Assembly (NCBI GenBank): GCA_000165345.1 | Contig: CM000433.1 | Span: 288,001-352,000 of the forward strand | Direction: 5' to 3' | DNA length: 64,000 bases | Part shown: positions 29,401 through 47,810 of the stretch, piece by piece | Layout of the letters: every line of letters starts with the position of its first letter | Numbering within the stretch: position 1 is the first letter of the stretch | Program-made: the position numbers and the translations under genes | The notes under the pieces: model-generated | Told to the model about the DNA's origin: nothing | Database searches by the model: none | Seen by the model: the letters and a program-made list of their open reading frames with translations, nothing else

Positions 29401-31303
29401 TCAAAAGTTGGCGAGACAACTGATTGTTATAGAGAAGGTTGTTGATAAACGACTTGCAGATTTAAATGAAATGTGGGATAGTACCTACTCGATTGAATAT
29501 TCAATTCAATGGGAGCTAAGAATAAAGGATATGCAGGACACTTATCTATATTTAAACAATGAATATAATAAAAATGCAGAGTTTATTGCAAGGCAACAGC
29601 TTCGTCAATCTCAGCTTCAAATAGGTAATCCTCAGTATCAACAGTTATTAAGTGAGACAAATCAATCAATAGAGATTGCTACTGATGAAATGAAAAAGTT
29701 ATTGAAATTAATGAACGAGCTGAGGCAGAAGAGAAATGAACTAGATACACTTGTTGAATCAGATTTATCAAGAAATTATGCGGAAAAAATAAATACTCTA
29801 AGGAGAAATTCAAAATTATTAGAGGACAATATAAGCAACGATATTAGTATTTTGCAGAAAAAAAATGAAATTTCTCAATTACAACTTAATAGGGACATAA
29901 AATATTTTGAGATTACAAATATGAGATCAGCTCTTTCTGAAAGGCAGAAAAAGAGCGAGGGGCTCATCGAGGCAAATATGTGGCTAAATACCAAGAATGA
30001 GCAATTATTTTCTGACTTTGAATCTAAGTTAAATGATGATTTGAGTTCTTTGACATACTCCTTTGAAAAGCCTGAAAAACATGGAGCATATTTAGCTTCA
30101 GAAGAAATTCCAAACGAAGCATTATCGGAGCTTAATAAATATAAAGAGCAACTCAAGATTAGTTTATTTAACGTAATGTTCTATAATGAGAACATAAATG
30201 ATAATGACATGCAACATATAAGTCAATTTGAATCAATGGATTCAAATATATTGGCTTATAAAGAGATATTTGAATCAGAAGGTGAAATAGATGATGGAAC
30301 ATTGTATGGTGAATTGAGTACTCTGGAGTGGAATATCATTCAATCTAGATGGGAGCTACTTAAGATGAAACATTTTTATATAGAAAAAAAAGAAAAAATA
30401 TTGATGGAGTGCGCAGAAATGAGAAACTCCTTAGACGAATTAATGCTGCAAAAGTATGGGATGATACCTATTACGAAGTCAAAAAATGTTCCCAGCAAAG
30501 CAAGCATTTTGGCTATGAAAGGAATAGGTATTAATCTAGGCGATGAGCTGGGAGTTTCTGATGAGAGCAATAACCTTAGCTATGATAGTAAAGTTCTTAA
30601 ACTTGTGCAAAAAAGACTCGAAGATGCAAACTCCGTGTTCGAACAAGAGCTTTCGAATAGATTGAGTATTCTAGATGAAAAAATAAGAGAAGGGAGAATA
30701 AGATTACATGAAGCTGCAAGAGAAGTTGTCTCAAATTGGGAGTTGCAACAGTCAACAGCTTCATTTAGATTTGCTTCTCCTCAAAATAAAGACAGAATGA
30801 GAGAAGCATTTGTAAGAGAGCGTGATAAGGTGACAAAAGATGAAATTAAAAAAACGATACCGATAAAACTAGAAAAACATATATTGCTTCAGCAACAAAA
30901 GGATCGTGCGTTACAATTCAAACGTGACATAGATTGGATACATACGCCTGGAAGGGTAGCGAGCCAATTAATGAAATTTGAACAAAAAATTAGAATTTTC
31001 CAGAAAAAAAGACATGATCACTATGAGCGAACCTTGAGGTTTCTTACATTTCAAGCAGAGCAAGTCGATCGAATCAAACAAATCGATGAAGAACTGAATG
31101 CCGATGAAACAAATAGTTCAAGGTCCAATGGACTTGGTATTCCACAAATCAATATTCAAGAACTAAGGAGAGAAAGAGAGAAACTAGAATCAGATCTTGC
31201 TCAAAAAAGGAGAGAGTATCAACTGCAACTTTCTAGTTTTCAAAATGAAAGAGATGCACTTTATGACGTGTCAAAAAATCTTAAAGATGATGAAAATAGT
31301 TAG
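26498..31303 (+). CDS. Large (1601 aa) signal-peptide-bearing protein with a roughly 500-aa N-terminal region and a roughly 1000-aa Glu/Lys/Leu/Gln-rich coiled-coil C-terminal region
   Basis: Uninterrupted ORF. N-terminus MKITFLVLFFGCVFVSVYSG is a typical signal peptide. The long heptad-like, charged-residue-rich C-terminal two-thirds predicts extended coiled coil. Family unknown. Confidence 0.6.
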   Translation: MKITFLVLFFGCVFVSVYSGEEKAFDNTKTQWDFILSAIKSYPNIKCKNLPKEVPGGFYSHGETKFFPETNEKIRILTENCVGALSSLLELHLPRSQRKYSFKFSDINEVDKTLKSFCSDTASRYFSFSGFIQSIKTENPIGTKSMGGRADRNLLNSSEDSFSKCEGINNQIPLRKKNIFFQGKTTKEKKFSANQLGFSKTPSELTTEGLEYNASEYEQFESEGTPISKYKTPKVLTTILKSVLDESKEDLPALEITISQLPKQVQNRVLTFFRSKDVDGIVESLNKLPRQIVESFINSIELEKKQIKFQLGSNSEQLEFSIPLFEDEWRAIIDFMSDPSSPIQYEKKINPYEQIKIPKEFKYSNGVLKKFIQYCRRGIRSLAYERYISEDGVTYYSYNENNLNGILIAGNDSDHRKEQVEAFCYMVFEKLYGKKEKEMMNKRHLKALEIKKSWEDGGVKGAVIDQLLKGFSDEINDERLQWLFLVESASIPNPLVYSTDLPKHTIPISFTSKPTDAATEITGKIRSFVYNCRNALMTLGVEKFPGTKSPLNKVHLGLDKVQGLIKFCKSVAHRYMGRLVEWFNIIQASLDDDIIKLIDMKNPEFRCPDYYEYEDESKLADNCSKTILMMINENKKAEENRRAKVWKGLKINSQPNHVNHQIRLFCNSVANERPEIRIASVDELSEQGIGGELSSVEEIQGYNKEQQALEIVEERLKTIESKQIEEKANSAYKLDKWNQLQDFMVENRRIREKLDKHSRRQFQKLFEIEDAQKDLLLSLLSEDIINEKKKETIRDLIDKYSSDLLSMRTEWADLLFQISNNNRKITEAEIEIMNFVHQALDYIAISHRIELVNSSTMANMIHWEETLIEKERTYINSKMLEYSSRLDSDQKIQKLKDMHYKRRQLFEKNLYRILPRKLWNRIHSLAAKGLHPLILAKISEKELKERKSLIVKLHEEKNNIIAKYDSEGQKLARQLIVIEKVVDKRLADLNEMWDSTYSIEYSIQWELRIKDMQDTYLYLNNEYNKNAEFIARQQLRQSQLQIGNPQYQQLLSETNQSIEIATDEMKKLLKLMNELRQKRNELDTLVESDLSRNYAEKINTLRRNSKLLEDNISNDISILQKKNEISQLQLNRDIKYFEITNMRSALSERQKKSEGLIEANMWLNTKNEQLFSDFESKLNDDLSSLTYSFEKPEKHGAYLASEEIPNEALSELNKYKEQLKISLFNVMFYNENINDNDMQHISQFESMDSNILAYKEIFESEGEIDDGTLYGELSTLEWNIIQSRWELLKMKHFYIEKKEKILMECAEMRNSLDELMLQKYGMIPITKSKNVPSKASILAMKGIGINLGDELGVSDESNNLSYDSKVLKLVQKRLEDANSVFEQELSNRLSILDEKIREGRIRLHEAAREVVSNWELQQSTASFRFASPQNKDRMREAFVRERDKVTKDEIKKTIPIKLEKHILLQQQKDRALQFKRDIDWIHTPGRVASQLMKFEQKIRIFQKKRHDHYERTLRFLTFQAEQVDRIKQIDEELNADETNSSRSNGLGIPQINIQELRREREKLESDLAQKRREYQLQLSSFQNERDALYDVSKNLKDDENS

Positions 31304-35035: not shown

Positions 35036-35704
35036 CTACTCAAAATACACAAACTGGTCTATTGCTCTTTGATATGAGTAAATTTCATCTGGGCTGAACC
35101 AGAGGAAGATTTCAAGATTGGCATTCTCAACTGAATCAGATGCGTGAATAAGATTTCTCTCAGTTTGCATTCCAAATTGTGCGCGTAAGGTCCCCATCTC
35201 TGATTTCTTTGGATCTGTAGAACCCATAAATCTACGGAACTCTGATATTACGTTCAAACCTTCAAGCACCATTGCAACAATTGGTTGATTGGTTGTTCTA
35301 GAAACTAAACTTTCAAAAAACGGCTTTCCTGCATGATCGGAATAATGAGCTTCGATCTGCTGAGCAGTAGCAACCAAAAATTTCATTGCAGCAATCTTAA
35401 AGCCTTTGCGCTCGATTTGGGAGAGGATCTCTCCAATGAGACCTCTATGAGTAACTTCTGGTTTGAATAACACTAAAGTTCTCTCAGCAAATGGATTCGT
35501 GGATTGTGGGCTAGTTTCCGCTACGGTTTCTACAGCAGTTTCATTGGTAGATGTTTGTTCTTGAGTATCAGAAACCAAATCTTCACTTGATAATGACGAT
35601 TCAGTCGAGTTGCTAGGGGCAGGAACTTCTTCTGAGTGAGAGCTTCCAACAAAAATTGAGCAAAGTAAGTACAAGAATGTTAAAAACAACAAACTCTTCT
35701 GCAT
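35036..35704 (-). CDS. Nucleoside diphosphate kinase with an N-terminal signal peptide and an acidic Ser/Thr-rich extension
   Basis: The C-terminal 150 aa match the NDK fold and active-site region throughout ('LVLFKPEVTHRGLIGEILSQIERKGFKIAAMKF...PFFESLV...PIVAMVLEGLNVISEFRRFMGSTDP...GTLRAQFG...RNLIHASDSVENANLEIFLWF'). The N-terminus MQKSLLFLTFLYLLCSIFVGSSHS is a signal peptide. Confidence 0.85.
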   Translation of the reverse strand: MQKSLLFLTFLYLLCSIFVGSSHSEEVPAPSNSTESSLSSEDLVSDTQEQTSTNETAVETVAETSPQSTNPFAERTLVLFKPEVTHRGLIGEILSQIERKGFKIAAMKFLVATAQQIEAHYSDHAGKPFFESLVSRTTNQPIVAMVLEGLNVISEFRRFMGSTDPKKSEMGTLRAQFGMQTERNLIHASDSVENANLEIFLWFSPDEIYSYQRAIDQFVYFE

Positions 35705-36058: not shown

Positions 36059-39000
36059 ATGCATTCTATAACAATTACAGTATTATTTTGTTTACTAATT
36101 CTGTGCTTTAATAGTGTTCTAATCTTCTGTAATAGTTCATTGGAATCCATTCCCAGATTTCAGCTTGAAGATTTACAACTTGATCCAGAAAATTTATCTG
36201 AAAATTTTATTCGAACTCAAAATGGTTGGAATAATGGAGGTGAAAAGCTAAAAGATGAACAACTAAGTATTCTTCCTGGATATATGAGAGAAATTACTGG
36301 CTCTAGTTCGTCTTGCCCTGCTTCTAGATCATGTAATGTTAATAGGAGTGATGTAGATGAATTAGCTGAACGTGTATTTATTCTCCAATCAGAAATATCT
36401 GAACTTTCAGTCGACTTATCTTGGTATAAAGTTTGTGCATTTTCTATTTCAATTATTGATACGAAAACATCTTTTATGAGCCATTGCAGAAGTTCTGGAA
36501 TTTCATTTTTACTTTCAAGACCTGTCACTAAACTGTTGGAGCAATCAATTGTTAGGTTATGCCGCAATATGCCACAATATTCTACGTGCAATGGAGTTGA
36601 CTTAGCACTTGACTCTTTAACTGAAGAGTTGTTTACAGCAACAATACCACATGTCTTGCCAATTGCAAAAAAATCTCTCGCATTTACACACTTTTGTTTT
36701 GTTTCATCAAGAAGTATAAGAGCAAGAACTCGCGAGGAATACTTAGAAATTTGCCAAGATAGTATACTTTTACTTCTAAATTTGCATGAAATGTCGGGAT
36801 CACAAATTACTTCCTCTATTGCTGAACAAATTTGTAAATCTACATGGATATTTAATACAGAATGTAATGGGTTTAGCAATACAAAATTGATATCTGAAAT
36901 CGCGTTTGAAATGTTTGTCTTAATAAGAAAAGAAGGAATTCCAAACATTGATATGAATAATGTTTGTCAATTGCTGACAAAAATTTCTCCCACCCTGCGT
37001 ATACCATCCGATACAAAAACTCCAATTTCAAGTAAAAAGAGATATCTGTATGAGTGCGCAATGTACCTTACTTCAATGATAGAACATGAAAAGTTGGCCA
37101 ATCATTCTGACAATAAATATGAATCAATGGAGAAATTTTATTCTCGTGGGGAAATCGTTAAACGCTTTCATGATATTGCAACTTCAATTTGTACTTCTGT
37201 TTCATTTTATCAAAAAAAGAGTAAAAAGAAGATTTTTATTCCGGGATTTAAAAAAAAGAAGATAATGGAAAAAAAACAGGGTGAGTCGATTCTGGAACTA
37301 TTTATGAATTTGATGCAATCAGTTAAAGCTACGTCTAGAAGAGTGCTTGGTTGGACAATTGAACTACCTTTTCCCGGTAGCGACGAATCAAAAGCAATGC
37401 TCATGTTGGGCTATTCATTAAATACTGTAGATGTTAGATCTATCCAAAATCCACAATATATTAGGATGTTAGCCATTCTGCATTCGAAAAAATACATCTT
37501 ACCAAAAACTGCATACAATATTTGGAGAGATTCTGTACTGTCAATAGGAATTGAAATTTTGCCACCATTCACTCCAAGTCTCACACCTGGAATTATTGCA
37601 AGGCCGGAGAAAGATATAGTTGACTTAAAATTAAATTGTGGAAGCAATAACGAGGATGTTGACGCACTTGCACTTGAATTACTAAGTGTTTCGCATGAAA
37701 ACAATTTAACAAATCTAAAATTTTATCAATTTTGTAAACCATCTGAATCTCTTGTTGGTGTTAGGAGTGAGGATTTCTATTCATCATGTATCGAGGCATT
37801 AAAGTATATACCAGAACTCGATATTCATACAAACAAAATTACAGGAAAATACTTGGCAATTCCACTTCACAAAATTTCAAAACTATGTCAAGATACTCCC
37901 AGATGGGAATCAACTTCATCAGGTCTGTCTTATGCATCTTTAATAATTCAGGATAATTTGAGGAAGAAAGACGAATTTAATAAAACAATGAAACCTTATT
38001 CAAAATTGAGTATGTTAACAGACAGAGATATACACTCATATGTAATAAAGACAGCAGCCAGGTCTGCTCTAGAACGTTCAGCTGCATCTGAACAAATTTG
38101 TAAACAGTTAAAACCAGTATATTCTGAAGAAGATAATAGTTTCCAGTTCAATACCCAAATAGATCCAGATAATCTTCAAAGCATTGCAAATATATTGTTT
38201 AGGAAAGCAGTATCGTTATTAGACGAAGATAAACAACTTGCCCTTTCTCTGTCTGGAAATATAGTAAAAGGGTCAAACCCAGTCACATTCGAATCATTCT
38301 GCTCCCTTGTGCTTGCTCTCTCAAAAGTTGAAAAAAAGTATTTCAATTCTGAATGCGCCAGAAATCTGAGATTGATGTTCAGACAAAAGGTGGTTATTAA
38401 TGGCAATGTAAGACTTGCGACAATTAAATCTAGAACCATTACCAAAATATGTATGTCTTCACCACTGTTTGAAAAATGTGGAAATTACAAAAATAATGAG
38501 ATAGATGAAATATCGTATGATCTATTACTGGGTGCCCAAAAACTAAGATTTACTTCAATTACTTATCGTCATATATGCAGCGTCGTGAAGAACATAAGGA
38601 GAGGAGAAATTAAAAGTTTAATTCCCAAGGGGCAAACAAATAATACAAATATTAGTAGCTTTTTTAATAGCGATTGTATTTATGGGTTAAGAACGCTTTC
38701 GATCGGTGCTAGACATGCAGAAATAATATGCAGTGCAACAAGGTTTTGGGTTATGTGTGGGAGCCATATGGACTCAGAAGTTGATGCACTGGCATCACAA
38801 ATATACTCTGAGGTTGTTCAGAATACTGGCCTTGCAAGGTTCATAACAGTATCTTTATTTGAGTTAGTGGACTTTTGCCCAATTGCTGAAGCTCTATTAC
38901 ATGAAGTGGATTTAAGGTTTTTCAATCGTGAATGTGTAAATGCGCTCGCAGCTATGTCAATAAGTAAGGAATATGGAATGTCAATTTGTCAAAGTTCAAG

Positions 39001-39763
39001 ACATTGGCAGGGTACATGTATTGGAACTTTAGATGAACATTCATCAATCATTGAACAGATAGATCCAATTGCAGGTGCACTATACAAATCCTCACAAGAT
39101 TTGGGATACTTGGATATTTTATTTAGCGACTTTTGCGATTCAGCAAAAGAGCTATTTTCTATCAAAGAAGTTACAGAAACAGGAAAAGTTTTGGAAGGTC
39201 ATGAAACATCAATGTTTCATACTGACTGTCCAAAAATAGTCAGTAATATGCTACATTCATTATCAGAAGAACATTCAATTGGGGTAACAAAGTTCAAAAT
39301 AAATAGTAGGACCATCAGATCTATTTCTTCTGAAAACTTTGAGAAGGCCGAAATGATTTGTCAGAACTTCTTTAATTATTTTGATCCTAACTATGGTGCA
39401 TCTCAAGTAGAAGAATACGATGAAGCAGACTTTAGGAGGAATGAAATAGAAAGGTTTAGTGTGAGAAATCCTGGGGAAAATACCAACCCTAATACTGTTT
39501 TCTTTCATGGCAAGTCATATAACCAAAGAATGGCTGGAAATAGCTACTATGGTAGGCACTATAGATATAATTGGGCTAATTTACTGGGCCAAAAATTCTT
39601 TATACCTAGCAACAGAATTAATGACGAATTTCGTGAAGAAATTCTTGAAAATAATAATCGAGCAGAAGGATACAAAGACTTGCAATATTTACCCTATGGA
39701 ACAAATCTTGAACATATTCAAAATACTGTATATAAGGGAAAGGAATACAATTCAGGGACCTGA
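36059..39763 (+). CDS. Giant (1234 aa) secreted protein built from a recurring Cys-containing module; paralogue of the downstream gene
   Basis: Signal peptide MHSITITVLFCLLILCFNSVLIFC. Repeated motifs are FxxFC-hydrophobic ('FTHFCFVSS', 'FESFCSLVLAL', 'LVDFCPIAEAL'), YFNxxC ('YFNSECARNL', 'FFNRECVNAL') and IC-x5-7-W-x2-C ('AEQICKSTWIFNTEC', 'AEIICSATRFWVMCG', 'MSICQSSRHWQGTC'). Single uninterrupted ORF. Confidence 0.7.
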   Translation: MHSITITVLFCLLILCFNSVLIFCNSSLESIPRFQLEDLQLDPENLSENFIRTQNGWNNGGEKLKDEQLSILPGYMREITGSSSSCPASRSCNVNRSDVDELAERVFILQSEISELSVDLSWYKVCAFSISIIDTKTSFMSHCRSSGISFLLSRPVTKLLEQSIVRLCRNMPQYSTCNGVDLALDSLTEELFTATIPHVLPIAKKSLAFTHFCFVSSRSIRARTREEYLEICQDSILLLLNLHEMSGSQITSSIAEQICKSTWIFNTECNGFSNTKLISEIAFEMFVLIRKEGIPNIDMNNVCQLLTKISPTLRIPSDTKTPISSKKRYLYECAMYLTSMIEHEKLANHSDNKYESMEKFYSRGEIVKRFHDIATSICTSVSFYQKKSKKKIFIPGFKKKKIMEKKQGESILELFMNLMQSVKATSRRVLGWTIELPFPGSDESKAMLMLGYSLNTVDVRSIQNPQYIRMLAILHSKKYILPKTAYNIWRDSVLSIGIEILPPFTPSLTPGIIARPEKDIVDLKLNCGSNNEDVDALALELLSVSHENNLTNLKFYQFCKPSESLVGVRSEDFYSSCIEALKYIPELDIHTNKITGKYLAIPLHKISKLCQDTPRWESTSSGLSYASLIIQDNLRKKDEFNKTMKPYSKLSMLTDRDIHSYVIKTAARSALERSAASEQICKQLKPVYSEEDNSFQFNTQIDPDNLQSIANILFRKAVSLLDEDKQLALSLSGNIVKGSNPVTFESFCSLVLALSKVEKKYFNSECARNLRLMFRQKVVINGNVRLATIKSRTITKICMSSPLFEKCGNYKNNEIDEISYDLLLGAQKLRFTSITYRHICSVVKNIRRGEIKSLIPKGQTNNTNISSFFNSDCIYGLRTLSIGARHAEIICSATRFWVMCGSHMDSEVDALASQIYSEVVQNTGLARFITVSLFELVDFCPIAEALLHEVDLRFFNRECVNALAAMSISKEYGMSICQSSRHWQGTCIGTLDEHSSIIEQIDPIAGALYKSSQDLGYLDILFSDFCDSAKELFSIKEVTETGKVLEGHETSMFHTDCPKIVSNMLHSLSEEHSIGVTKFKINSRTIRSISSENFEKAEMICQNFFNYFDPNYGASQVEEYDEADFRRNEIERFSVRNPGENTNPNTVFFHGKSYNQRMAGNSYYGRHYRYNWANLLGQKFFIPSNRINDEFREEILENNNRAEGYKDLQYLPYGTNLEHIQNTVYKGKEYNSGT

Positions 39764-39893
39764 GCGTGTTAAAAAGAACTAAGGCTTTTATTACAATTAT
39801 TAATTATGGCTGTTTGGCATTTTATATTTGGTTTTTAATAAAATTTTTTTCATCATTTCATTAGCAAAGAAAATATGCCTTAGTTGTGGGGTG

Positions 39894-39905
39894 CTTTGGC
39901 GCTAG
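39894..39905 (+). promoter_or_regulatory. E2F-like motif CTTTGGCGCTAG about 130 bp upstream of ATG 40032
   Basis: TTTGGCGC core in an AT-rich intergenic region. Confidence 0.3.
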
Positions 39906-40031
39906 TTATCTAAGTATCGAAATCACACTTGCATAAGGCTACTATGTAGATTATGAAATACTAAAACTTAATTCTCTTCAGAAAATATAGGTTTATTCAA
40001 ATATTAATAGTTGTTCTATTAATGTATAAAT

Positions 40032-43000
40032 ATGTTATTTATCCGACTGTTACTTACCTATTCTCTTTTATTCACTTTTCTTGAAAGTGTAATATTTTGC
40101 CAGGAAATTGACAAGAGTAGGATTATTTTGGAAAGCATTCTGAATGAATTGCATGGCTTGGGGTATTCACAAATTAAACAGGACAACCTAATAAATCCTA
40201 TTCAAGAAATTTATAATGGAGATTTGGACCACTTTAATTCATTTTGTGTAAATTCGCTTTTAAATTACTACAGAAATTCGCCCAGTGAAATATGGGTAAA
40301 TGAGCAGGTTGGTCAAGTCTCAATTGATAAGATTATTCACAACTTTATATTGGTTTGCAGAGAGCTACCAGAATGGCAAAATGTTTGTCAAAATCAACCT
40401 TCTATAGATAGTTTAATTGCAACTGACATTCATTTAGCAGCATTATTAACGATGAATGAAAACCATGAGCTAAGCAATGTTCCAATTGATACATTTTGTA
40501 ACTTGAATTTAAATTTTTTTAATGAAGATCATTCAAATTATAATCATTTATGCGTCGAAAAGCTAATATCTAATCAAGTAAATTTTGAAAAAATTACTTT
40601 TAAAATTAGGGACGCTTTAACAATTTGCTCAATGACAACATTTTGGTCAAAAATTTGTATTAAAAATAACTCCAATAACTATGATCTTCCAGAGTTGCAT
40701 TTGCTTGCATCTTCTCTATTCTTTGAGGTTTCTAAGCATGATAAATATTTATCTAGTTCAAATGGTTTAGAAGGATTAACACCTATAGAATTTTGTGGGT
40801 TATCTGAGAAAATGATCTTAAAAGGAGATGTATTGAACTACTTTAATATTATTTGCGTTGATGAATTATCAATATCTTCTAAGCTTGTTTTGGGAAGATC
40901 TTGGTTACCTTCGACAAAGAACATAATTGATATTTGCAGAAATAATCCTTTATGGATAACATGCGACCTTAATTTAAATTATAAAAACTTCGATACTATT
41001 AATTCACTCTCAGATAATAAAGAATCTGGCTATATATCCATTATTGATAAAACTAGTTTACTTGCCACAGCATTGTTACAGCAGATACACCTGCTGCCAA
41101 CTTATATGTTTAGCTCATTATATTATCAATTCGCGGATATTGATAATCTATGCTATATAACAAGCATAATTCAAAATGACATAAGTCTAATACAAAACGA
41201 AGAACTTTCTACTCATTCGCAAATAAACTTTGGACAGTTTTTCAATTCAATATGCTGGCGAATTCTTTCAACTTATCCTATTACTTTTAAAACGAGTATC
41301 GGAATCATTTCTCAGCCAATAAAAACTCTTGAAGCAGTTTCAGTGTGTAGTTCTTCCGTACTATTTTGGGTTAACGATTGTGTAACTGAAAGCTCTGAAG
41401 ACTTAATTTATCTGCCTCAAATAAGCATTTTATCACAGGAACTTTTGATTTCATCAAAAAAATATTATAATTTGCCTGCGAACACATTTTGTATTGCTGC
41501 TAAAAACATAATTTCAAACCTGAATAAATTAAATAGTGGGCTCGGATCTTCTGCTAAAAGACTTGAAGACTATTCAATCAGTTGGGTTCTAAATAATATT
41601 AGTAAAATAGATTCATACGCTCAATTTAATGGAATAACGTCAGGATATTTTAACAGAGAATGTGTAAGAGAACTTATAGGAAGTAATGAAAGTAACAGTG
41701 AGTATATCCCAATGAATTTTGCGATTTTTATCTGTAGTAGTTCATTAAGATGGGAAAAATGTCCGGTAAAAGGTAGTATTAAAAGTAAGTTTTTGACAGA
41801 ATTTGTAGCATCCGAATTCTACTATGGATTATTAGCAGAAATGGACTTCAATTTCCAATTCAACTGGAATGATATTTGCTTGATATCAGAATCAACCATA
41901 CCTGAAGAGTATGATAATTTAGACTCAATCCCTAATATTCCTTATTTCAACCATTTTTGCTCTTTAAGTTTTATCAAAAACCTAAAACTTATAAGAAAAA
42001 ACGCAAATATTTCATTCAGTGAAAACAAACAATATATATTTACTAATTTTATTAGAGTTTGTGTTCACAATTATTTTTGGAGGGTGCCATGTGGAGAAAT
42101 TGTTGAATTAGATTTGCTTGCAAACAGTTTACTTTTTGGCTCACATCAATTTGCATCTATGCAAAATATATCTGAACCTCAATTTTGTAAAGCAGCAAAC
42201 AATTTATTAGACGTGGACCCAACAAAATTTGAAATTGAGTGTATGAGGGAACTCATGAAAATTGGTACTCAATTCACTTCAGAAATAGCTCAAGGGGCTT
42301 GCACAGTAACGCACCGTTCTCAAATATGCCATGGGTACCCGGAAGAATATTCTCATATTGCTGGTACGCTATTCTCAGCTATGTATCAATATTTTCCAAT
42401 TTCTGAAATTCCGAGTTTTATTGAATTTTGTGAAATTGTCCATTCGATATTCACAGATAATGAAATAAACGATTCACCATATTATTTTAATGCTATATGC
42501 GCAAGACACATTCACAATTCTAACTTGAATGCATCATTTTTGACTATATCTGTCCTTTGCAGCCATATATCTCCAAACAACATTTCCAATGAAGATTATA
42601 CGGAATCTCTTTTGGTTTCTGAATTTTTTAAAAAAAGTAAAAGCATAAATTCACTAAGAAAGTGGGAATTACATTATTTCTATCCATTGGCCAAACAAAT
42701 TTTAGAAAGTATAGAAAAAGATCCAAAGGATATTTCTAATTTTAATTATAAGTGTGTTGCAATAACAAGGAGTATAATATCTACCGATTCATTTACATTA
42801 AAATTGGATGATGCAATTTCATTATGCAGCGGTTCAATTGCATTTAAAATTTACTGTAAAAATCAAAATCAAAGTATTCAACACTTAGTATCTGAAATAA
42901 TTCAAGGGATAATGTTAAATTATGGGTTAGACATAATTGAATATTCTGAAATTCAATCAATTTGTAGTGCTGCAAAATTAATTCATGATGGGTCAGTAGA

Positions 43001-46000
43001 AAAACAACCGATCTCGAGAAATTTACCTGGAATAACCAAATATCCATATTTCTTAAATTCTTGTATCGAGGTGTTAACTTCAGGAATAATACTACCTACT
43101 AAATTTGTCGAAATTTCTACAGACAATGCTATTTCAATATGCACTCAATCTTTGCGCTCTTCAACACCATGTAAGAGCGAGAAGGCTATTGTATCTGCTA
43201 TTGCTGTGGGGCTTTATTCAGAAATGCAAAATTTCCCTGAAATGGCCAAATTACAAGTAACTGAATTATGCATTTTTGCCTCAAAACTTGCCGAAAGTAA
43301 TACAGAAGACTATTTAGAAACATGCTCTAAATATTTAAGTAATTTTAAGTCATATATTCCAACAATTGAAGACCTAAATGTAAATCTTACTGAAATTCAA
43401 AAGCAAAGAATTTGTACGAAGCCGTTTATGTGGCCCAAATGCAATGTTGATGAAAATTTGGTGCGTGGGGTTCACTCAGTTCAAATAGAAAAGCTCGCTT
43501 CAAAGCTAAAAGCAATATTCAAATCAAATGATATTAATATTTGGAAGTTCGAAAGGTATTGTGTCTTTGCAGAAAAACTCCTGAATGATAATGGCGAAAA
43601 TGATTTTATAAAATGTAATAATTTGCTTAAAGACTTCGAATATATTGAAATAATCAAACAAAGTTCGAATATAGTGGAAAACCCTCTGTTTTTATTTTAC
43701 AAACTTGAAGATAAAACTATTAACAAAGTTTGCAGTATAATCTCTTCTCACTCAAATTGCCTCAATTCCAGAAATGGGCTATCAGGCCTACTTGCATCAA
43801 ACTTTTTTTCTATTTCAACAAAATATTTGGATTTGAATTCAATAAAGAGCTCGGACTTTTGTATAATTTCGGAATTATTACTACAGAGAGGTAGTTTAAA
43901 GGAGATTAAGGAGAGTTGCCCTTATTTGCTGTTACAAATAACTAATTTGGAACACTGGCCTAAAATAATGTTAACACCGGAGCTCAGTCAAGTAATCTGC
44001 GATAGTTTAAGTATTACAAATTTGAATTGCATTATGCCCAACATAAATCAGGGTATTACAATTGAAATTTCGTCTGCTATTAATGATATAGCAATCGAAT
44101 TGTTTTTCATTAGAAAAAAATATGTTCCAAGTTTTAATCCTGAATCGAGCTGCATAATGGCAGAATCATTAATTCAGTTTGGAATAAAAAATGAGTATTT
44201 CAATCGCCTTTGCATAAACTTAATTTCATACGACATTTGGAATTTTTCAGGAAATTTTGACAAAAAATATAGTCAATATTGGAGTATTAGCCGTGAAGAT
44301 CCCATGACTTTCATTAGTTTTATTAAGAGTGAAGCTTCACGATTCTGTGAAGAATTAGAAGGGAGACTTTCAGAAATATATATAAAAAGTCATAATTTTA
44401 TTTCAAAAAAAAAACGTGATAATAAGCTAGACAATAAAATTTACTATCAAAAGGTCCTCAGAAGAACCTTTAATCCATTAAATTTTGGTAAAACTAATGA
44501 ACATGATCTTTCGAATAAACTTACGAAAAAAGAAGAAAGAATCGAACTGAAAAAGAAGTTGAGAATTATTTCTAAAGCTAAAGGGTATGTTGCATTAAAC
44601 GACGAGGCTGTCAAGGAATATTCCCCAGAAATGGTGGATTTTAAGTTAGCAAAGAAGTACTATGCCGACTTCCCTAAAGATATTTACAAATCTATAGATA
44701 ATTCAAATTTTGTATTTAAGATGCCAGAATTTAACTGGAATTTGTTCTCAGAAAAGCTTGTGTTTACTTCAAAGAATTTTCTTGGAATTTCAATAAAGGT
44801 TTCTGATCCAAAATACGGTGGTATTGCAGGGCTAATTCAAAAGTGGGGATATACGCCTCAAGGCACAGTGCAAGGTGCGCAGTATATTTATCGAGTGTCT
44901 AGATATATAAACAAATATATGATAAGCCCAAAAAAAGCATATTTAATTTGGAAAGAGACTCTTATAGCAATGAATTTCGCTATTCTCCCGAAATGGCGTG
45001 ATTCATGGCAAGATGAGATTAGGAAACCAAGTCCATTAGATGAGCAACCTTTGCCTTCATGTGAAGGAGTTAAATCAAGCAAAGTATTAAAACAGTTGGG
45101 AATGGATAAGAAAAAAATAAGTATGGTGGCACTTGCAAATATTGACTCCTTCGTCGCACAGATGACGGAGGCAGCTCATGATTTGAAGTTATATAATGTC
45201 AAATTTAACGATTTTTGCCTTGTCGGGATTATATTGTTTAATACTAAATCTTATTCGAGAACTGAATCTTTTAACTATCAGTGTACTAAATGGGTTAAAG
45301 AAATTGGGTATGTTGAAGAGTATGTTGAAAATGTTAATTTTGCTGAAAATGAGCACAAACTTTCAAAAAAAATCGTAAATCGTCTTAAAAATAATGTTAG
45401 AAAGCAAATACCTGCTATTTTAGCTAGAAAAATATGTGCAAGCACAAGCCGTTGGATGAGTTGTAACAGTGGAGTTGGAATCGATGAAAAACTAAACATT
45501 GATAATCTCGCAACCGAGTTAGTCAGGCTTTCAAGAATTGCTGGACTTGAATTTCGTGATATGTGTGAAGTCGCAATTCAAATCGCTAATGCTCAAGACT
45601 TCAATCAGAAATGTCCAGTCATACTTCAGCAGGTAATTGGTAATTATAATAGGTCATATCAAGTTTGTAAGTCCACTAGTTCTTGGAAATCGTGCCAATA
45701 TTCAAAGGTAGTATTGGATCCAAAGTTAAAAGAACATTTGGATACATTAACAACTGAATTAACAATTGGACTAAATGAAGTTTTCCCAAATATCTTTACT
45801 TTCGAGGAAATATGCTACTTGAGTGAAAAGTTTGTTGCTTCTGAATACTTTAAAACCGATTGTACTAGATCATTATTTGATTTTTTGGTTGCCCAAAGGT
45901 TTATTAAACCAACGTTAAATATTTATGGAGACGTAAAACCTTCAAAGTCCTTTAAGCATATTGTATCAGTTGCGCTTGCAATTTGCTATGACACATTAAG

Positions 46001-47810
46001 GTGGCAACAAGCAACTTGTGTCTTGGAAAGTGAAGGTTATTACTCACTTCATGAAAAGCAATGGGTTGATTTAGTTTCAGAAGAAATATTAAAAGAAATG
46101 ATGGAGTTAAGTAAACTTGATCCACAAATATCCATATTTTTTAAGAATGCAGAAAGGGAGCAGCTTTTGGAGCGTTTTAATCTTGAGAATAATAACAAAT
46201 TTAAAATAAAACTTCCTCCTGTAATCAAGTATCATGATATTTGTAACCATGTGGCCAAAATAACAAAAACAAGATACTTTAATATTAATTGTATCCAAGT
46301 AACCACTGACATTTTTCAAACTCAATTAACAAAGATCAAGCTAGAAAATGAACGTGCTAATAATTTTGAGGAAATTAATTTATATGGAGGTATCATAAAG
46401 GTTCCAAATTCAAGCACAATTGAGGGTATTTGTAAAGGAAGCATTTTTTGGGAAACTTGCTCAAATAAACATTTGCAGCCACTCTTTAAGTTTGATTTGG
46501 AAAATGCAAAAAAAGAGGATGTCGACATTATTGTCAATGACATCATGGTCTCTATTTTACAACTTAATCAAAATGGTTTTGAAAGCTCCGTTGATATTAA
46601 AAAAGAACTGCATGATTTAGACAATATACACAAACTAGCTTCAAAGACGGTTGATTCACTAGACTATCTTGATTTTTGCAAGATTGGGATTTGGTATTCG
46701 AAAGAAATATCAAATTTAGAACAAAAAGAGCACTCTGAGTTACAGAATCTTCTTTCAACAAAGATTCTCTTCCTCATTCTTGAAAGCATGTATCCCAATC
46801 GTAAGCTAGAAAAGGATCAAGTAACCGAAGAATCTGAAAATGAGGAGCTTGGTACACTTGATCAATACATTGAACAATCAATAATCAAACTTCCGACAAC
46901 AGCTCCAAAACTAGTTAAACCACCCAGTTCTATGTTCAGAAATATAACAAGTATTGAGACAGTATTATTACATCAAAGCGATGACTACTCAAGCAATATT
47001 TTCGCGGTGAATCTATCTGGTTTTCCTATGTTTCAAGACTTTTATGTGAAAAGAAATATTTCAACCATTGATAGAGATATCTATGGGAATACTCTATATG
47101 TTAAGCCTAAAGCTGGGCTTATGCTTTCAAGTTATCAACTACCCGATGGATCGCAGAAGCTCTCTAAATACGTAAATTTAGAAAAAGGTAGAAATATAGT
47201 TGAACCTAAGATCAATCAACTCGAAACGGAACGAATATTACACATAATAAAGCAGAACCCAAATAATTTTCATTCTTCAATTCTACCTCATGCTACAAAA
47301 GAAATCATTGGTAAAAAGAAACCAAATCCTTCCGAAAAGAAAATAAAAAAAGAATGGTACAGAAATATTAAAAAAGAGTACTATTACAAGAAAGGAAGAG
47401 AAATTGCAAAGAAAGAATGGGAATCGAGGCAAATTGCGTTTAGTAACAACAATGGAACCGGAGAAATTATATGGGAAACTGAAAAGAAGAAGATTCCAAA
47501 CCTTATCCATGCGTTATTTAACTCTGAATTGAGAAAGCAAAGAAAAGAAGGGAAATTATTTAATAAAGGTTTATATAAGGCAAGAGTTCATCAATTTCTT
47601 CTTGAAAAATTTGATAATGACTTAAAATTGAGAAAAGAAAACGAGAAAACAGGAAAGATTATAATCAAATCAAAATATAAAAACAATATCCATACAAAAA
47701 ATGGCGAAATTAACAACCTTGAAAAAATTTATAGTGAACAAGAAATCAATGTTGTTACAAATATAGCAGCATTAATAGGCTATAACCAAATTGCAGTTGA
47801 TTTGCTTTAG
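40032..47810 (+). CDS. Giant (2592 aa) secreted protein of the same Cys-module family (about 15 or more module copies), with a Lys-rich low-complexity insert and tail
   Basis: Signal peptide MLFIRLLLTYSLLFTFLESVIFC. The modules recur as, for example, 'ALTICSMTTFWSKIC', 'IIDICRNNPLWITC', 'AVSVCSSSVLFWVNDC', 'AIFICSSSLRWEKC', 'FIRVCVHNYFWRVPC', 'ARKICASTSRWMSC', 'ALAICYDTLRWQQATC', 'EGICKGSIFWETC'. Each follows 'FxxFC'/'YFNxxC' helices. Single 7.8-kb ORF. Confidence 0.7.
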   Translation: MLFIRLLLTYSLLFTFLESVIFCQEIDKSRIILESILNELHGLGYSQIKQDNLINPIQEIYNGDLDHFNSFCVNSLLNYYRNSPSEIWVNEQVGQVSIDKIIHNFILVCRELPEWQNVCQNQPSIDSLIATDIHLAALLTMNENHELSNVPIDTFCNLNLNFFNEDHSNYNHLCVEKLISNQVNFEKITFKIRDALTICSMTTFWSKICIKNNSNNYDLPELHLLASSLFFEVSKHDKYLSSSNGLEGLTPIEFCGLSEKMILKGDVLNYFNIICVDELSISSKLVLGRSWLPSTKNIIDICRNNPLWITCDLNLNYKNFDTINSLSDNKESGYISIIDKTSLLATALLQQIHLLPTYMFSSLYYQFADIDNLCYITSIIQNDISLIQNEELSTHSQINFGQFFNSICWRILSTYPITFKTSIGIISQPIKTLEAVSVCSSSVLFWVNDCVTESSEDLIYLPQISILSQELLISSKKYYNLPANTFCIAAKNIISNLNKLNSGLGSSAKRLEDYSISWVLNNISKIDSYAQFNGITSGYFNRECVRELIGSNESNSEYIPMNFAIFICSSSLRWEKCPVKGSIKSKFLTEFVASEFYYGLLAEMDFNFQFNWNDICLISESTIPEEYDNLDSIPNIPYFNHFCSLSFIKNLKLIRKNANISFSENKQYIFTNFIRVCVHNYFWRVPCGEIVELDLLANSLLFGSHQFASMQNISEPQFCKAANNLLDVDPTKFEIECMRELMKIGTQFTSEIAQGACTVTHRSQICHGYPEEYSHIAGTLFSAMYQYFPISEIPSFIEFCEIVHSIFTDNEINDSPYYFNAICARHIHNSNLNASFLTISVLCSHISPNNISNEDYTESLLVSEFFKKSKSINSLRKWELHYFYPLAKQILESIEKDPKDISNFNYKCVAITRSIISTDSFTLKLDDAISLCSGSIAFKIYCKNQNQSIQHLVSEIIQGIMLNYGLDIIEYSEIQSICSAAKLIHDGSVEKQPISRNLPGITKYPYFLNSCIEVLTSGIILPTKFVEISTDNAISICTQSLRSSTPCKSEKAIVSAIAVGLYSEMQNFPEMAKLQVTELCIFASKLAESNTEDYLETCSKYLSNFKSYIPTIEDLNVNLTEIQKQRICTKPFMWPKCNVDENLVRGVHSVQIEKLASKLKAIFKSNDINIWKFERYCVFAEKLLNDNGENDFIKCNNLLKDFEYIEIIKQSSNIVENPLFLFYKLEDKTINKVCSIISSHSNCLNSRNGLSGLLASNFFSISTKYLDLNSIKSSDFCIISELLLQRGSLKEIKESCPYLLLQITNLEHWPKIMLTPELSQVICDSLSITNLNCIMPNINQGITIEISSAINDIAIELFFIRKKYVPSFNPESSCIMAESLIQFGIKNEYFNRLCINLISYDIWNFSGNFDKKYSQYWSISREDPMTFISFIKSEASRFCEELEGRLSEIYIKSHNFISKKKRDNKLDNKIYYQKVLRRTFNPLNFGKTNEHDLSNKLTKKEERIELKKKLRIISKAKGYVALNDEAVKEYSPEMVDFKLAKKYYADFPKDIYKSIDNSNFVFKMPEFNWNLFSEKLVFTSKNFLGISIKVSDPKYGGIAGLIQKWGYTPQGTVQGAQYIYRVSRYINKYMISPKKAYLIWKETLIAMNFAILPKWRDSWQDEIRKPSPLDEQPLPSCEGVKSSKVLKQLGMDKKKISMVALANIDSFVAQMTEAAHDLKLYNVKFNDFCLVGIILFNTKSYSRTESFNYQCTKWVKEIGYVEEYVENVNFAENEHKLSKKIVNRLKNNVRKQIPAILARKICASTSRWMSCNSGVGIDEKLNIDNLATELVRLSRIAGLEFRDMCEVAIQIANAQDFNQKCPVILQQVIGNYNRSYQVCKSTSSWKSCQYSKVVLDPKLKEHLDTLTTELTIGLNEVFPNIFTFEEICYLSEKFVASEYFKTDCTRSLFDFLVAQRFIKPTLNIYGDVKPSKSFKHIVSVALAICYDTLRWQQATCVLESEGYYSLHEKQWVDLVSEEILKEMMELSKLDPQISIFFKNAEREQLLERFNLENNNKFKIKLPPVIKYHDICNHVAKITKTRYFNINCIQVTTDIFQTQLTKIKLENERANNFEEINLYGGIIKVPNSSTIEGICKGSIFWETCSNKHLQPLFKFDLENAKKEDVDIIVNDIMVSILQLNQNGFESSVDIKKELHDLDNIHKLASKTVDSLDYLDFCKIGIWYSKEISNLEQKEHSELQNLLSTKILFLILESMYPNRKLEKDQVTEESENEELGTLDQYIEQSIIKLPTTAPKLVKPPSSMFRNITSIETVLLHQSDDYSSNIFAVNLSGFPMFQDFYVKRNISTIDRDIYGNTLYVKPKAGLMLSSYQLPDGSQKLSKYVNLEKGRNIVEPKINQLETERILHIIKQNPNNFHSSILPHATKEIIGKKKPNPSEKKIKKEWYRNIKKEYYYKKGREIAKKEWESRQIAFSNNNGTGEIIWETEKKKIPNLIHALFNSELRKQRKEGKLFNKGLYKARVHQFLLEKFDNDLKLRKENEKTGKIIIKSKYKNNIHTKNGEINNLEKIYSEQEINVVTNIAALIGYNQIAVDLL

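Follow-up and report, generated by a model that had tools for sequence, protein, structure and literature searches.

What are the two giant proteins encoded side by side at this locus of Cryptosporidium parvum, how are they built, and in which compartment and stage of the parasite would they act? The window analyzed here is a stretch of 64,000 nucleotides (contig CM000433.1 of assembly GCA_000165345.1, positions 288,001 to 352,000), and all features described below lie on its plus strand. The initial annotation described two uninterrupted same-strand genes of 1234 and 2592 aa, and an ORF check reproduced their coordinates and lengths exactly. The first, at 36059-39763, is cgd5_1480 and matches the deposited protein EAK88102.1 exactly; the second, at 40032-47810, is cgd5_1490, the "large cysteine rich protein" (EAK88100.1/Q5CRU0/CPATCC_002151), and likewise matches its deposited protein exactly, both entries being from C. 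parvum Iowa II. Published qPCR primers for the two genes map to 37566-37587 and 40281-40303, respectively, and the product names are those of the PMC3542205 supplement. The genes are not unannotated: names containing "cysteine rich" were given to both in the 2004 genome annotation and have been kept since. Our literature search found no mention of either gene or its accessions in the main text of any paper covered, and no localization, knockout, or binding data for them. The proposed position inside a cluster of signal-peptide genes was borne out by the hydrophobicity heuristic, with six consecutive genes, cgd5_1440 to cgd5_1490, possessing hydrophobic leaders.

Both proteins are tiled with the same recurring cysteine module, with the consensus hDxLAxxL ... 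FxxFC ... YFNxxC ... AxxIC-x5-7-W-x2-3-C, and the five motif examples quoted in the initial annotation are all present in the proteins. An HMM search located 8 copies in cgd5_1480 and 18 plus a partial 19th in cgd5_1490, and the seed HMM reached E = 1e-5 to 1e-15 for copies from which it had not been built. The module is far above chance level. A profile built only from cgd5_1490 recovered all eight cgd5_1480 copies (159 bits, E = 5e-49); conversely, a profile of the cgd5_1480 copies searched against cgd5_1490 gave 213 bits, whereas the best score in a shuffled control of 400 sequences was 7.3-8.9 bits. Together with a direct BLASTP match between the two proteins (E = 1e-11), these cross-validated profiles establish the suspected paralogy. 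Two details required correction: the repeat itself stands, but its length is 77-147 aa rather than roughly 100-130 aa, and the tryptophan described as conserved follows the third cysteine in only about 15 of the 26 copies, with an aromatic residue in most. A structure model of a single module is all-alpha, the "W..C" tail being its sole low-confidence part.

Cysteines make up 2.7-2.9% of the residues (36 in the 1234 aa of cgd5_1480 and 71 in the 2592 aa of cgd5_1490, or about 1 in 35). What stands out about them is their regular spacing, at four per module of about 100 aa, and not their density. Invariant cysteines account for 70/71 in cgd5_1490 and 33/36 in cgd5_1480, compared to an overall invariance of 26% and 47%, respectively; the non-invariant ones of both proteins all lie within the signal peptides, and every cysteine of mature cgd5_1490 is invariant across seven species. 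When we compared C4 of one module with C1 of the next, both were present at 25 junctions, both were absent at 6, and none was discordant. The junction pair between modules 8 and 9 of cgd5_1490, for example, is lost in the intestinal species and kept in C. serpentis (C868/C900). Because of this bookkeeping of presence and absence, the "IC..W..C" motif, which is indeed present, appears to span a domain boundary rather than to form a unit of a single module, its last cysteine being assigned to the next domain, and each domain would hold two internal disulfides. In each domain, the cysteine after the tryptophan would pair with that of "FxxFC", and the "YFNxxC" cysteine with that of "xIC" (in cgd5_1490, for instance, C1047 with C1080 and C1098 with C1128), a scheme derived from presence/absence logic rather than from distances in model coordinates. 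All cgd5_1490 cysteines can be assigned to intradomain pairs, with none obviously free for cross-linking. Under the same scheme, C86 of cgd5_1480 and C23 of cgd5_1490 would be unpaired within the chain, either as free thiols or linked to another molecule.

The modules are interrupted by a second domain common to both proteins, which is central and cysteine-free and had been missed in the initial annotation. Its invariant positions are GY, QYI, AYxIW, and D; its HMM detects all orthologs of both genes at E = 1e-37 to 1e-68, and profile-profile comparison with hhalign revealed no relation between the module and this domain. In cgd5_1480, a predicted signal peptide (aa 1-24, 36059-36130; Kyte-Doolittle maximum 2.7-3.2 at the N-terminus) contains the three cysteines that are the only non-conserved ones of this protein. 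Modules 1-3 follow as an N-terminal array defined by hmmsearch domains (aa 91-385, 36329-37213), with C92 lying just ahead of the first helix as the putative partner of C126. A basic linker (aa 386-409, 37214-37285; 46% K+R, net +9) then leads to the central domain (aa 410-526, 37286-37636), which was delimited by BLASTP, the central-domain HMM (E = 6e-61), and alignment and is homologous to aa 1565-1676 of cgd5_1490. Module 4 (aa 527-621, 37637-37921; hmmsearch domain and cysteine bookkeeping) opens with C527, probably paired with C559, and lacks a cysteine after its tryptophan. It is followed by a degenerate segment (aa 622-718, 37922-38212) with one conserved cysteine, C681, which would pair with C748 and corresponds to C690 in the C. 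serpentis ortholog. The C-terminal array of modules 5-8 (aa 719-1107, 38213-39379; HMM domains) is the most conserved part of the protein, and an N/Y/G/R-rich tail (aa 1108-1234, 39380-39760) is poorly conserved and has no Pfam match.

The larger protein has a similar plan. Following a signal peptide predicted by the hydrophobicity heuristic (aa 1-23, 40032-40100), with C23 at its probable cleavage site and a cysteine at or near this position in every cgd5_1490 ortholog inspected, 14 modules delimited as HMM domains form an acidic N-terminal array (aa 24-1441, 40101-44354; net -42). The basic linker (aa 1442-1564, 44355-44723; net +12) is of low confidence or disordered in the AlphaFold model, while the HMM-defined central domain (aa 1565-1676, 44724-45059) is modeled as all-alpha with pLDDT 85-93. 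The C-terminal array of modules 15-18 (aa 1677-2146, 45060-46469; HMM domains) opens with an orphan cysteine, C1677, the putative partner of C1729; conservation within this protein is highest in this array and the central domain. The partial 19th HMM domain (aa 2147-2235, 46470-46736) consists of the first helix and "FC" only, and its C2216 would pair with C2143. Finally, a lysine-rich tail (aa 2236-2592, 46737-47807; net +15) is mostly poorly conserved and has no Pfam match, but contains a conserved C-terminal motif, YNQIA[VS]D[LM]L.

Signal peptides had been proposed for both proteins, and both N-termini are strongly hydrophobic, while a hydrophobicity scan found no internal transmembrane-like segment in either; the signal-peptide and GPI predictions are heuristic. 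Since these leaders are accompanied by a near-total invariance of the mature cysteines, a secretory fate is strongly implied for both proteins.

The expectation of a lineage-specific family was also upheld, as seven cluster representatives among 1.84e9 were recovered, all of them from Cryptosporidium. The family has three members, and the third paralog (P0050/P0051) carries both domain types, with 6-7 weaker module copies and a central domain detected by the seed HMM at E = 1e-9. Both domain families, the module and the central domain, are absent from Pfam and PDB. Pfam searches with both full proteins (E <= 1) returned nothing except one spurious match at 0.78, the 26 single modules matched no recurring family, and the central regions and tails (E <= 10) gave nothing meaningful. 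Sequence and profile searches of PDB with the module, the center of cgd5_1490, and the central-domain alignment yielded nothing below E = 0.15. The module thus has no Pfam match that would place it among the known cysteine-repeat families (EGF, TSP1, Apple/PAN, 6-Cys s48/45, SRS, and LCCL), as the initial annotation had judged for EGF, TSP1, and SRS, and neither of the outcomes that it named as refuting, a clean match to a described Pfam family or a lack of pairwise similarity, was observed. The best fold matches, all non-significant, were the Nab2 N-terminal domain, HAD cap domains, the RIFIN V2 region, and spider-silk repetitive/terminal domains. For the central domain, restriction to Cryptosporidium is judged only by its absence from Pfam and PDB.

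The gene order NDK-cgd5_1480-cgd5_1490 is syntenic in the gastric species C. serpentis, whose cgd5_1480 ortholog is 47% identical and has the same 8 modules and central domain. Between C. parvum and C. hominis, both genes are strictly syntenic single-copy orthologs with 97-98% identity, at least that of the neighboring housekeeping gene NDK, which points to purifying selection. Because they are as conserved as this neighbor, the two proteins, which the initial annotation had put forward as candidates for host interaction, are unlike diversifying antigens.

Published expression data place the two genes in asexual growth. Transcripts of both are close to nil at 2 h and present by 6-12 h in asexual culture, and that of cgd5_1490 peaks at 36 h, at about 100 times the level of cgd5_1480 (PMC3305300). 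Between female and asexual cells, cgd5_1480 is flat, with a logFC of -0.23 (PMC6877471), and in in vivo females it is lower, not higher. The typical invasive-stage secretory gene cgd1_140 falls by -3.8 in cultured females, a drop that cgd5_1480 does not share; since it is not down in cultured females and is lower in in vivo females, cgd5_1480 does not clearly follow a simple "zoite organelle cargo" pattern. At the protein level, cgd5_1490 is abundant in an oocyst proteome, with at least 20 unique peptides, and Tandel et al. include it in an 85-gene signature from what the authors call the oocyst wall proteome. However, the same signature includes enolase, actin, and ribosomal protein L3, and because such cytosolic proteins are listed too, the listing is uninformative on compartment.

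With confidence somewhat short of even, we favor a reading in which cgd5_1480 and cgd5_1490 form a tandem pair of ancient origin within a Cryptosporidium-restricted, soluble secretory-pathway family that serves as a non-enzymatic structural or adhesive scaffold (matrix) of invasive stages. In each protein, small four-helix domains would follow one another in a chain, two disulfides inside each domain would hold it together, and about nine residues (C-x5-7-W-x2-3-C) would lie between the last cysteine of one domain and the first of the next. Since this gap is so short, the arrays may be expected to act as stiff strings of beads, flanking a basic linker and the cysteine-free helical domain, with a poorly conserved tail at the end. 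Synthesis of the proteins would accompany invasive-stage assembly, starting at approximately 6-12 h of merogony, and sporozoites/oocysts would carry them within a secretory compartment or on or around the parasite.

One alternative, which we consider unlikely, is constitutive secretion at the interface of the intracellular stages (parasitophorous vacuole, feeder organelle, or a dense-granule-type route) by asexual and female parasites alike, with no storage for invasion. The flat profile of cgd5_1480 in sorted asexual and female cells would suit it, as would the silence of both genes at 2 h followed by expression through 12-48 h, and a genus-specific family parallels the unusual epicellular niche of Cryptosporidium. 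However, the abundance in oocysts/sporozoites fits pre-packaging better, we found no export motif or evidence of host targeting, and many interface effectors lack the high conservation seen here.

It is also conceivable, though we would not expect it, that the three family members build an extracellular or luminal polymer specific to Cryptosporidium, made of stiff, disulfide-pinned helical-bead rods that self-assemble electrostatically, the two domains being truly new folds/families. Assembly would be driven by the acidic N-terminal array on one side and by the basic linker, central domain, and tail on the other, and the unpaired cysteines (C86 of cgd5_1480 and C23 of cgd5_1490) might also take part. 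Such a structure would be without equivalent in other Apicomplexa and could belong, for instance, to the attachment zone/feeder-organelle interface or to a zoite organelle matrix.

A place in the oocyst wall, for which the initial annotation had kept room under "wall structure," is improbable. Cysteine cross-linked proteins of the wall, inner wall, or suture would share the signal peptide, the lack of a transmembrane segment, the conserved cysteines, and the "cysteine rich" names, and cgd5_1490 is in the 85-gene signature. However, that signature is not wall-specific, COWPs possess a cysteine every 10-12 residues (PMC12548878) compared to about 1 in 35 here, and no cgd5_1490 cysteine is obviously available for cross-links. 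Moreover, expression of COWP and other wall genes is strongly restricted to females, and crystalloid-body genes are female-specific too (PMC6877471, PMC10233709), whereas cgd5_1480 is flat and both genes are already expressed at 6-12 h in asexual culture instead of showing the late-rising 48-72 h pattern. More improbable still is a role in the matrix of the crystalloid body of sporozoites, comparable to that of the CCp/LAP proteins, which are likewise large, secreted, and multidomain. Proteins of this organelle have signal peptides along with complex interaction domains (PMC10233709), and cgd5_1490 is abundant in oocysts/sporozoites, but the genes concerned are reported to be female-exclusive and the organelle to be absent from merozoites (PMC10233709), our two genes are transcribed in asexual growth, and a Pfam search of the full proteins found no LCCL or other CCp-type domain. 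Given the transcript onset at 6-12 h in asexual parasites and the lack of female specificity of cgd5_1480, the proteins are probably components of neither structure.

RIFIN-like variant or immune-evasion surface ligands are hardly credible: the RIFIN variable region (V2) was the top Foldseek match, but neither it nor the other matches, among them unrelated helical bundles, reached significance, and strictly syntenic single-copy orthologs at 97-98% identity are the opposite of a variant family. We give next to no credence to RAP-domain RNA-binding proteins, proposed only by the name "RAP domain-containing protein" that UniRef automatically assigns to the C. hominis orthologs, as PF08373 is not matched (full proteins, E <= 1; central regions and tails, E <= 10), the RAP domain has an alpha/beta restriction-endonuclease-like (nuclease-like) fold whereas the sole non-repeat folded domain here is predicted to be all-alpha (pLDDT 85-93), as are the modules, and a signal peptide with a putative 35 or so conserved disulfide pairs is unfit for an organellar RNA-binding protein. 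A RAP domain, a COWP-like wall protein, a crystalloid-body protein, and a RIFIN-like variant antigen were all rejected as candidates.

Cryptosporidium ranks among the leading causes of death from diarrhea in children, and neither a vaccine nor a fully effective drug exists against it. Genus-only, highly conserved, predicted secreted proteins that are abundant in oocysts/sporozoites are candidates for diagnostics, vaccine antigens, and markers of parasite structure, and testable disulfide and domain boundaries are now available for expression constructs. Our analysis also flags the UniRef "RAP domain" label as probably wrong and narrows the likely location of the proteins away from the oocyst wall and crystalloid body.

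The two proteins resemble three known systems in part. The neighboring gene cgd5_1440 (window 26498-31303, with its primer mapping to 28602), which is labeled as a CpLSP and is the sole CpLSP compared, is likewise large and Cryptosporidium-specific, with a signal peptide and a similar 12-h onset, but lacks both the module (E = 0.14) and the central domain; cgd5_1480 carries no CpLSP label in the CryptoDB-labeled tables examined. COWP1-9 are also Cryptosporidium proteins with a signal peptide, no transmembrane segment, tandem cysteine-containing repeats, and a presumed structural role. However, their cysteines recur every 10-12 residues and their expression is restricted to females (PMC12548878, PMC6877471), while our pair has four cysteines per all-alpha domain of about 100 aa, is not female-specific, and shows no sequence similarity to them. 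Finally, the CCp/LAP (LCCL-domain) proteins, on which transmission stages of other Apicomplexa depend, are similarly conserved, very large, secreted multidomain proteins without a transmembrane anchor, but they combine known adhesive domains that several phyla share, and their genes are female-specific, whereas cgd5_1480 and cgd5_1490 are built from two domains known only from Cryptosporidium and are transcribed in asexual stages.

We found that the two adjacent ORFs of 1234 and 2592 aa claimed at 36059-47810 are exact in coordinates and length (36059-39763 and 40032-47810, both on the forward strand). The window lies on chromosome 5 of Cryptosporidium parvum Iowa II. Since the qPCR primers published for cgd5_1480 and cgd5_1490 fall inside the first and second ORF, respectively, and product names in the supplement of PMC3542205 are consistent with this assignment, the two genes are cgd5_1480 and cgd5_1490. 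Both have previously been annotated, as cysteine-rich, and we found no mention of either in the main texts of the papers searched. A 243-aa antisense ORF inside cgd5_1480 (36217-36948, reverse strand) probably arose by chance, the coding sequence being AT-rich.

The initial annotation had proposed that the same Cys-containing module tiles both proteins, and every motif example that it quoted is present in them. Tiling with a seed HMM gave 18 module copies in cgd5_1490 and 8 in cgd5_1480, and copies left out of the seed were recovered with E values of 1e-5 to 1e-15. The consensus of the 26-copy alignment reads hDxLAxxL ... FC ... FNxxC ... AxxIC ... W. A profile built only from the cgd5_1490 copies recovered 8/8 cgd5_1480 copies with 159 bits, and the reverse test scored 213 bits, compared to a top score of 7.3-8.9 bits for 400 shuffled sequences. 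Pairwise similarity between the two proteins is also significant (BLASTP E = 1e-11). The module repeat is real, and the cross-profile scores bear out the proposed tiling of both proteins; a window-wide check found the module in no other ORF.

Pfam searches with the full proteins, the 26 separate modules, the central regions and the tails assigned no family, and sequence and profile searches of the PDB gave no match below E = 0.15, which upholds the claim that the module is unclassified. AlphaFold2, run with a 72-sequence alignment of paralogs and orthologs, predicts a four- to five-helix bundle for the module (pLDDT 81.4, pTM 0.73). Foldseek returned nothing at E ≤ 0.001, the top match being a RIFIN V2 domain (E = 1.1, TM 0.31). 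The model of the central-domain core of cgd5_1490 (aa ~1565-1674) is likewise all-alpha, with pLDDT 85-93, while confidence is low in the basic stretch upstream. The module and the central domain are two unclassified helical domains. UniRef names the C. hominis orthologs (P0002, P0004, P0009 and P0012) 'RAP domain-containing protein', but this label is unsupported because there is no Pfam RAP match and the predicted folds are all-alpha; it is probably an automatic mis-annotation.

Both proteins have a common layout. A hydrophobic leader comes first and a poorly conserved tail last; between them, an N-terminal and a C-terminal array of modules flank a basic linker and, after it, a Cys-free central domain. 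The top BLASTP segment between the two passes through the central region. Each ortholog of either gene has one central domain (E = 1e-37 to 1e-68), with GY, QYI, AYxIW and D as invariant residues, and profile-profile comparison found it unrelated to the module. In cgd5_1490, the N-terminal array (aa 24-1441) carries a net charge of -42, while the linker (+12) and central domain (+6), together aa 1442-1676, and the tail (+15, aa 2236-2592) are basic, as is the first C-terminal module by itself (+9). Speculatively, this segregation is compatible with electrostatic self-association. Outside short motifs, the cgd5_1490 tail is poorly conserved. The motifs 'EYYYKKG', 'YKARVHQFL' and, at the extreme C-terminus (window ~47760-47807), 'YNQIA[VS]D[LM]L' are conserved from C. 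parvum through to C. serpentis and could be sorting or interaction motifs.

An HMM search without word index against 1.84 billion cluster representatives found the module in only 7 clusters, all from Cryptosporidium, in agreement with the suggestion of a lineage-specific family. These clusters comprise cgd5_1490 orthologs (including that of the gastric species C. serpentis), cgd5_1480 orthologs and, as a third paralog group, proteins of ~1,880 aa found in chipmunk genotype I, C. muris, C. andersoni and C. serpentis and absent from the window. The third paralog starts with a signal peptide, carries two central-type domains in tandem close to its N-terminus and continues with ~6-7 degenerate modules. 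Together, these findings show a genus-restricted family of three members. In C. serpentis, the locus order is the same as in C. parvum (a 728-aa gene, the nucleoside diphosphate kinase (NDK) gene, a 1267-aa gene and a 2673-aa cgd5_1490 ortholog), and the 1267-aa protein matches cgd5_1480 at 47% identity over its full length, with the same eight modules and central domain. Since locus tags also place the two genes next to each other in C. ubiquitum, C. ryanae and C. meleagridis, the tandem pair is older than the gastric/intestinal split, an ancient syntenic arrangement. On one 389-kb contig of C. felis (P0046, P0048, P0049), two gene models of 328 and 1864 aa divide the cgd5_1490 ortholog, and the cgd5_1480 model is truncated at 828 aa, which probably reflects breaks in assembly or annotation and not biology.

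Across seven species, 70/71 Cys of cgd5_1490 are invariant compared to 26% of residues overall, as are 33/36 Cys of cgd5_1480 compared to 47% overall. All non-invariant Cys lie in signal peptides, and Trp invariance is 81-89%. C. parvum and C. hominis are 97.2% identical in cgd5_1480 and 98.0% in cgd5_1490, with 97.1% for the neighboring cgd5_1460 and 95.5% for NDK. Both genes have conserved, single-copy orthologs and are not diversifying antigens.

With each Cys assigned to a class by HMM state (C1 in 'FxxFC', C2 in 'YFNxxC', C3 in 'xIC' and C4 after the conserved Trp), C4 of one module and C1 of the next are both present at 25 junctions, both absent at 6 and discordant at none, a count that takes C681 of cgd5_1480 as the partner of C748. 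C4 is missing from the last module of every array (module 14 of cgd5_1490; modules 3, 4 and 8 of cgd5_1480), and an orphan Cys stands at the right distance before arrays that follow non-repeat sequence (C92 and C527 in cgd5_1480, C1677 in cgd5_1490). The terminal partial domain of cgd5_1490 holds this pair alone (C2143 and C2216), and the third paralog ends in the same way, with only the C4/C1-type pair. At the junction of modules 8 and 9 of cgd5_1490, both Cys are gone in intestinal species and both are kept in C. serpentis (C868, C900). The alternative, pairing within the module (C1-C2 and C3-C4), gives 7 discordant modules and leaves 5 orphan Cys. The single-module model is of low confidence in one stretch only, the 'W..C' tail, and has the N-terminal Cys within a confident block.

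This pattern of Cys presence and absence suggests that the structural domain would begin at the Cys after Trp, with two internal disulfides, Ca-Cb and Cc-Cd. The motif 'IC-x5-7-W-x2-C', originally read as part of one module, is indeed present, but under the pairing across junctions it would instead be a short inter-domain connector fixed at both ends. Since such a connector would be short and doubly anchored, the arrays would be stiff and rod-like. In this phase, all 70 mature Cys of cgd5_1490 find a partner. Two Cys fall outside the pairing: C86 of cgd5_1480 (window ~36314-36316), which is kept only in intestinal species and absent in C. serpentis, and C23 of cgd5_1490 (window ~40098-40100), which is at the predicted signal-peptide cleavage site, with a Cys at or near there in every ortholog inspected. 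Each might remain a free thiol or form a link between molecules.

Hydrophobic leader peptides occur on six consecutive genes, cgd5_1440, 1450, 1460, 1470, 1480 and 1490 (26498-47810), and on two further reverse-strand genes (53003-53734 and 53817-55199). Adjoining cgd5_1480, here and in C. serpentis, is the signal-peptide protein cgd5_1470 (35036-35704, reverse strand), with a clear N-terminal hydrophobic leader, a ~50-aa Ser/Thr/Glu-rich spacer and an NDK domain (Pfam E = 4e-52). It is uncommon for an NDK to be secreted. Expression of cgd5_1470 is ~14 log2 units, among the highest genes, in the first sample group of one supplement table (file 5) of Tandel et al.

In a culture time course from 2 to 72 h, with transcript given relative to 18S rRNA (PMC3305300), cgd5_1480 is close to zero at 2 and 6 h, ~1e-6 at 12-48 h and ~1e-7 at 72 h, and cgd5_1490, also close to zero at 2 h, rises from 6-12 h to a maximum at 36 h (~4.5e-4) and is down by 72 h. 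Both genes are transcribed from mid-merogony on. In sorted cells, mean log2 CPM of cgd5_1480 is 8.11 in asexual, 7.88 in female in vitro and 6.80 in female in vivo samples (PMC6877471). The cgd5_1490 protein is abundant in oocysts, being part of an 85-gene signature whose members have 20 or more unique peptides in the oocyst proteome of Truong and Ferrari (PMC6877471); this signature also lists cytosolic proteins and is therefore not wall-specific. The suggested role in wall structure is disfavored by the transcription from mid-merogony and by the female-versus-asexual logFC of -0.23 for cgd5_1480 (PMC6877471). Oocyst-wall and crystalloid-body genes are female-specific (PMC10233709, PMC12548878) and the crystalloid body is missing from merozoites (PMC10233709), which argues against both locations for cgd5_1480 and cgd5_1490.

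We infer that both proteins are secretory and act as non-enzymatic scaffold or adhesive proteins of invasive stages or of the parasite surface or interface. The nearby cgd5_1440 (1601 aa; primer at 28602), labelled 'CpLSP gene family', differs in having no domain in common with either of them. The pair belongs to a familiar category, the lineage-specific secreted repeat proteins of apicomplexans, and its module is unclassified.
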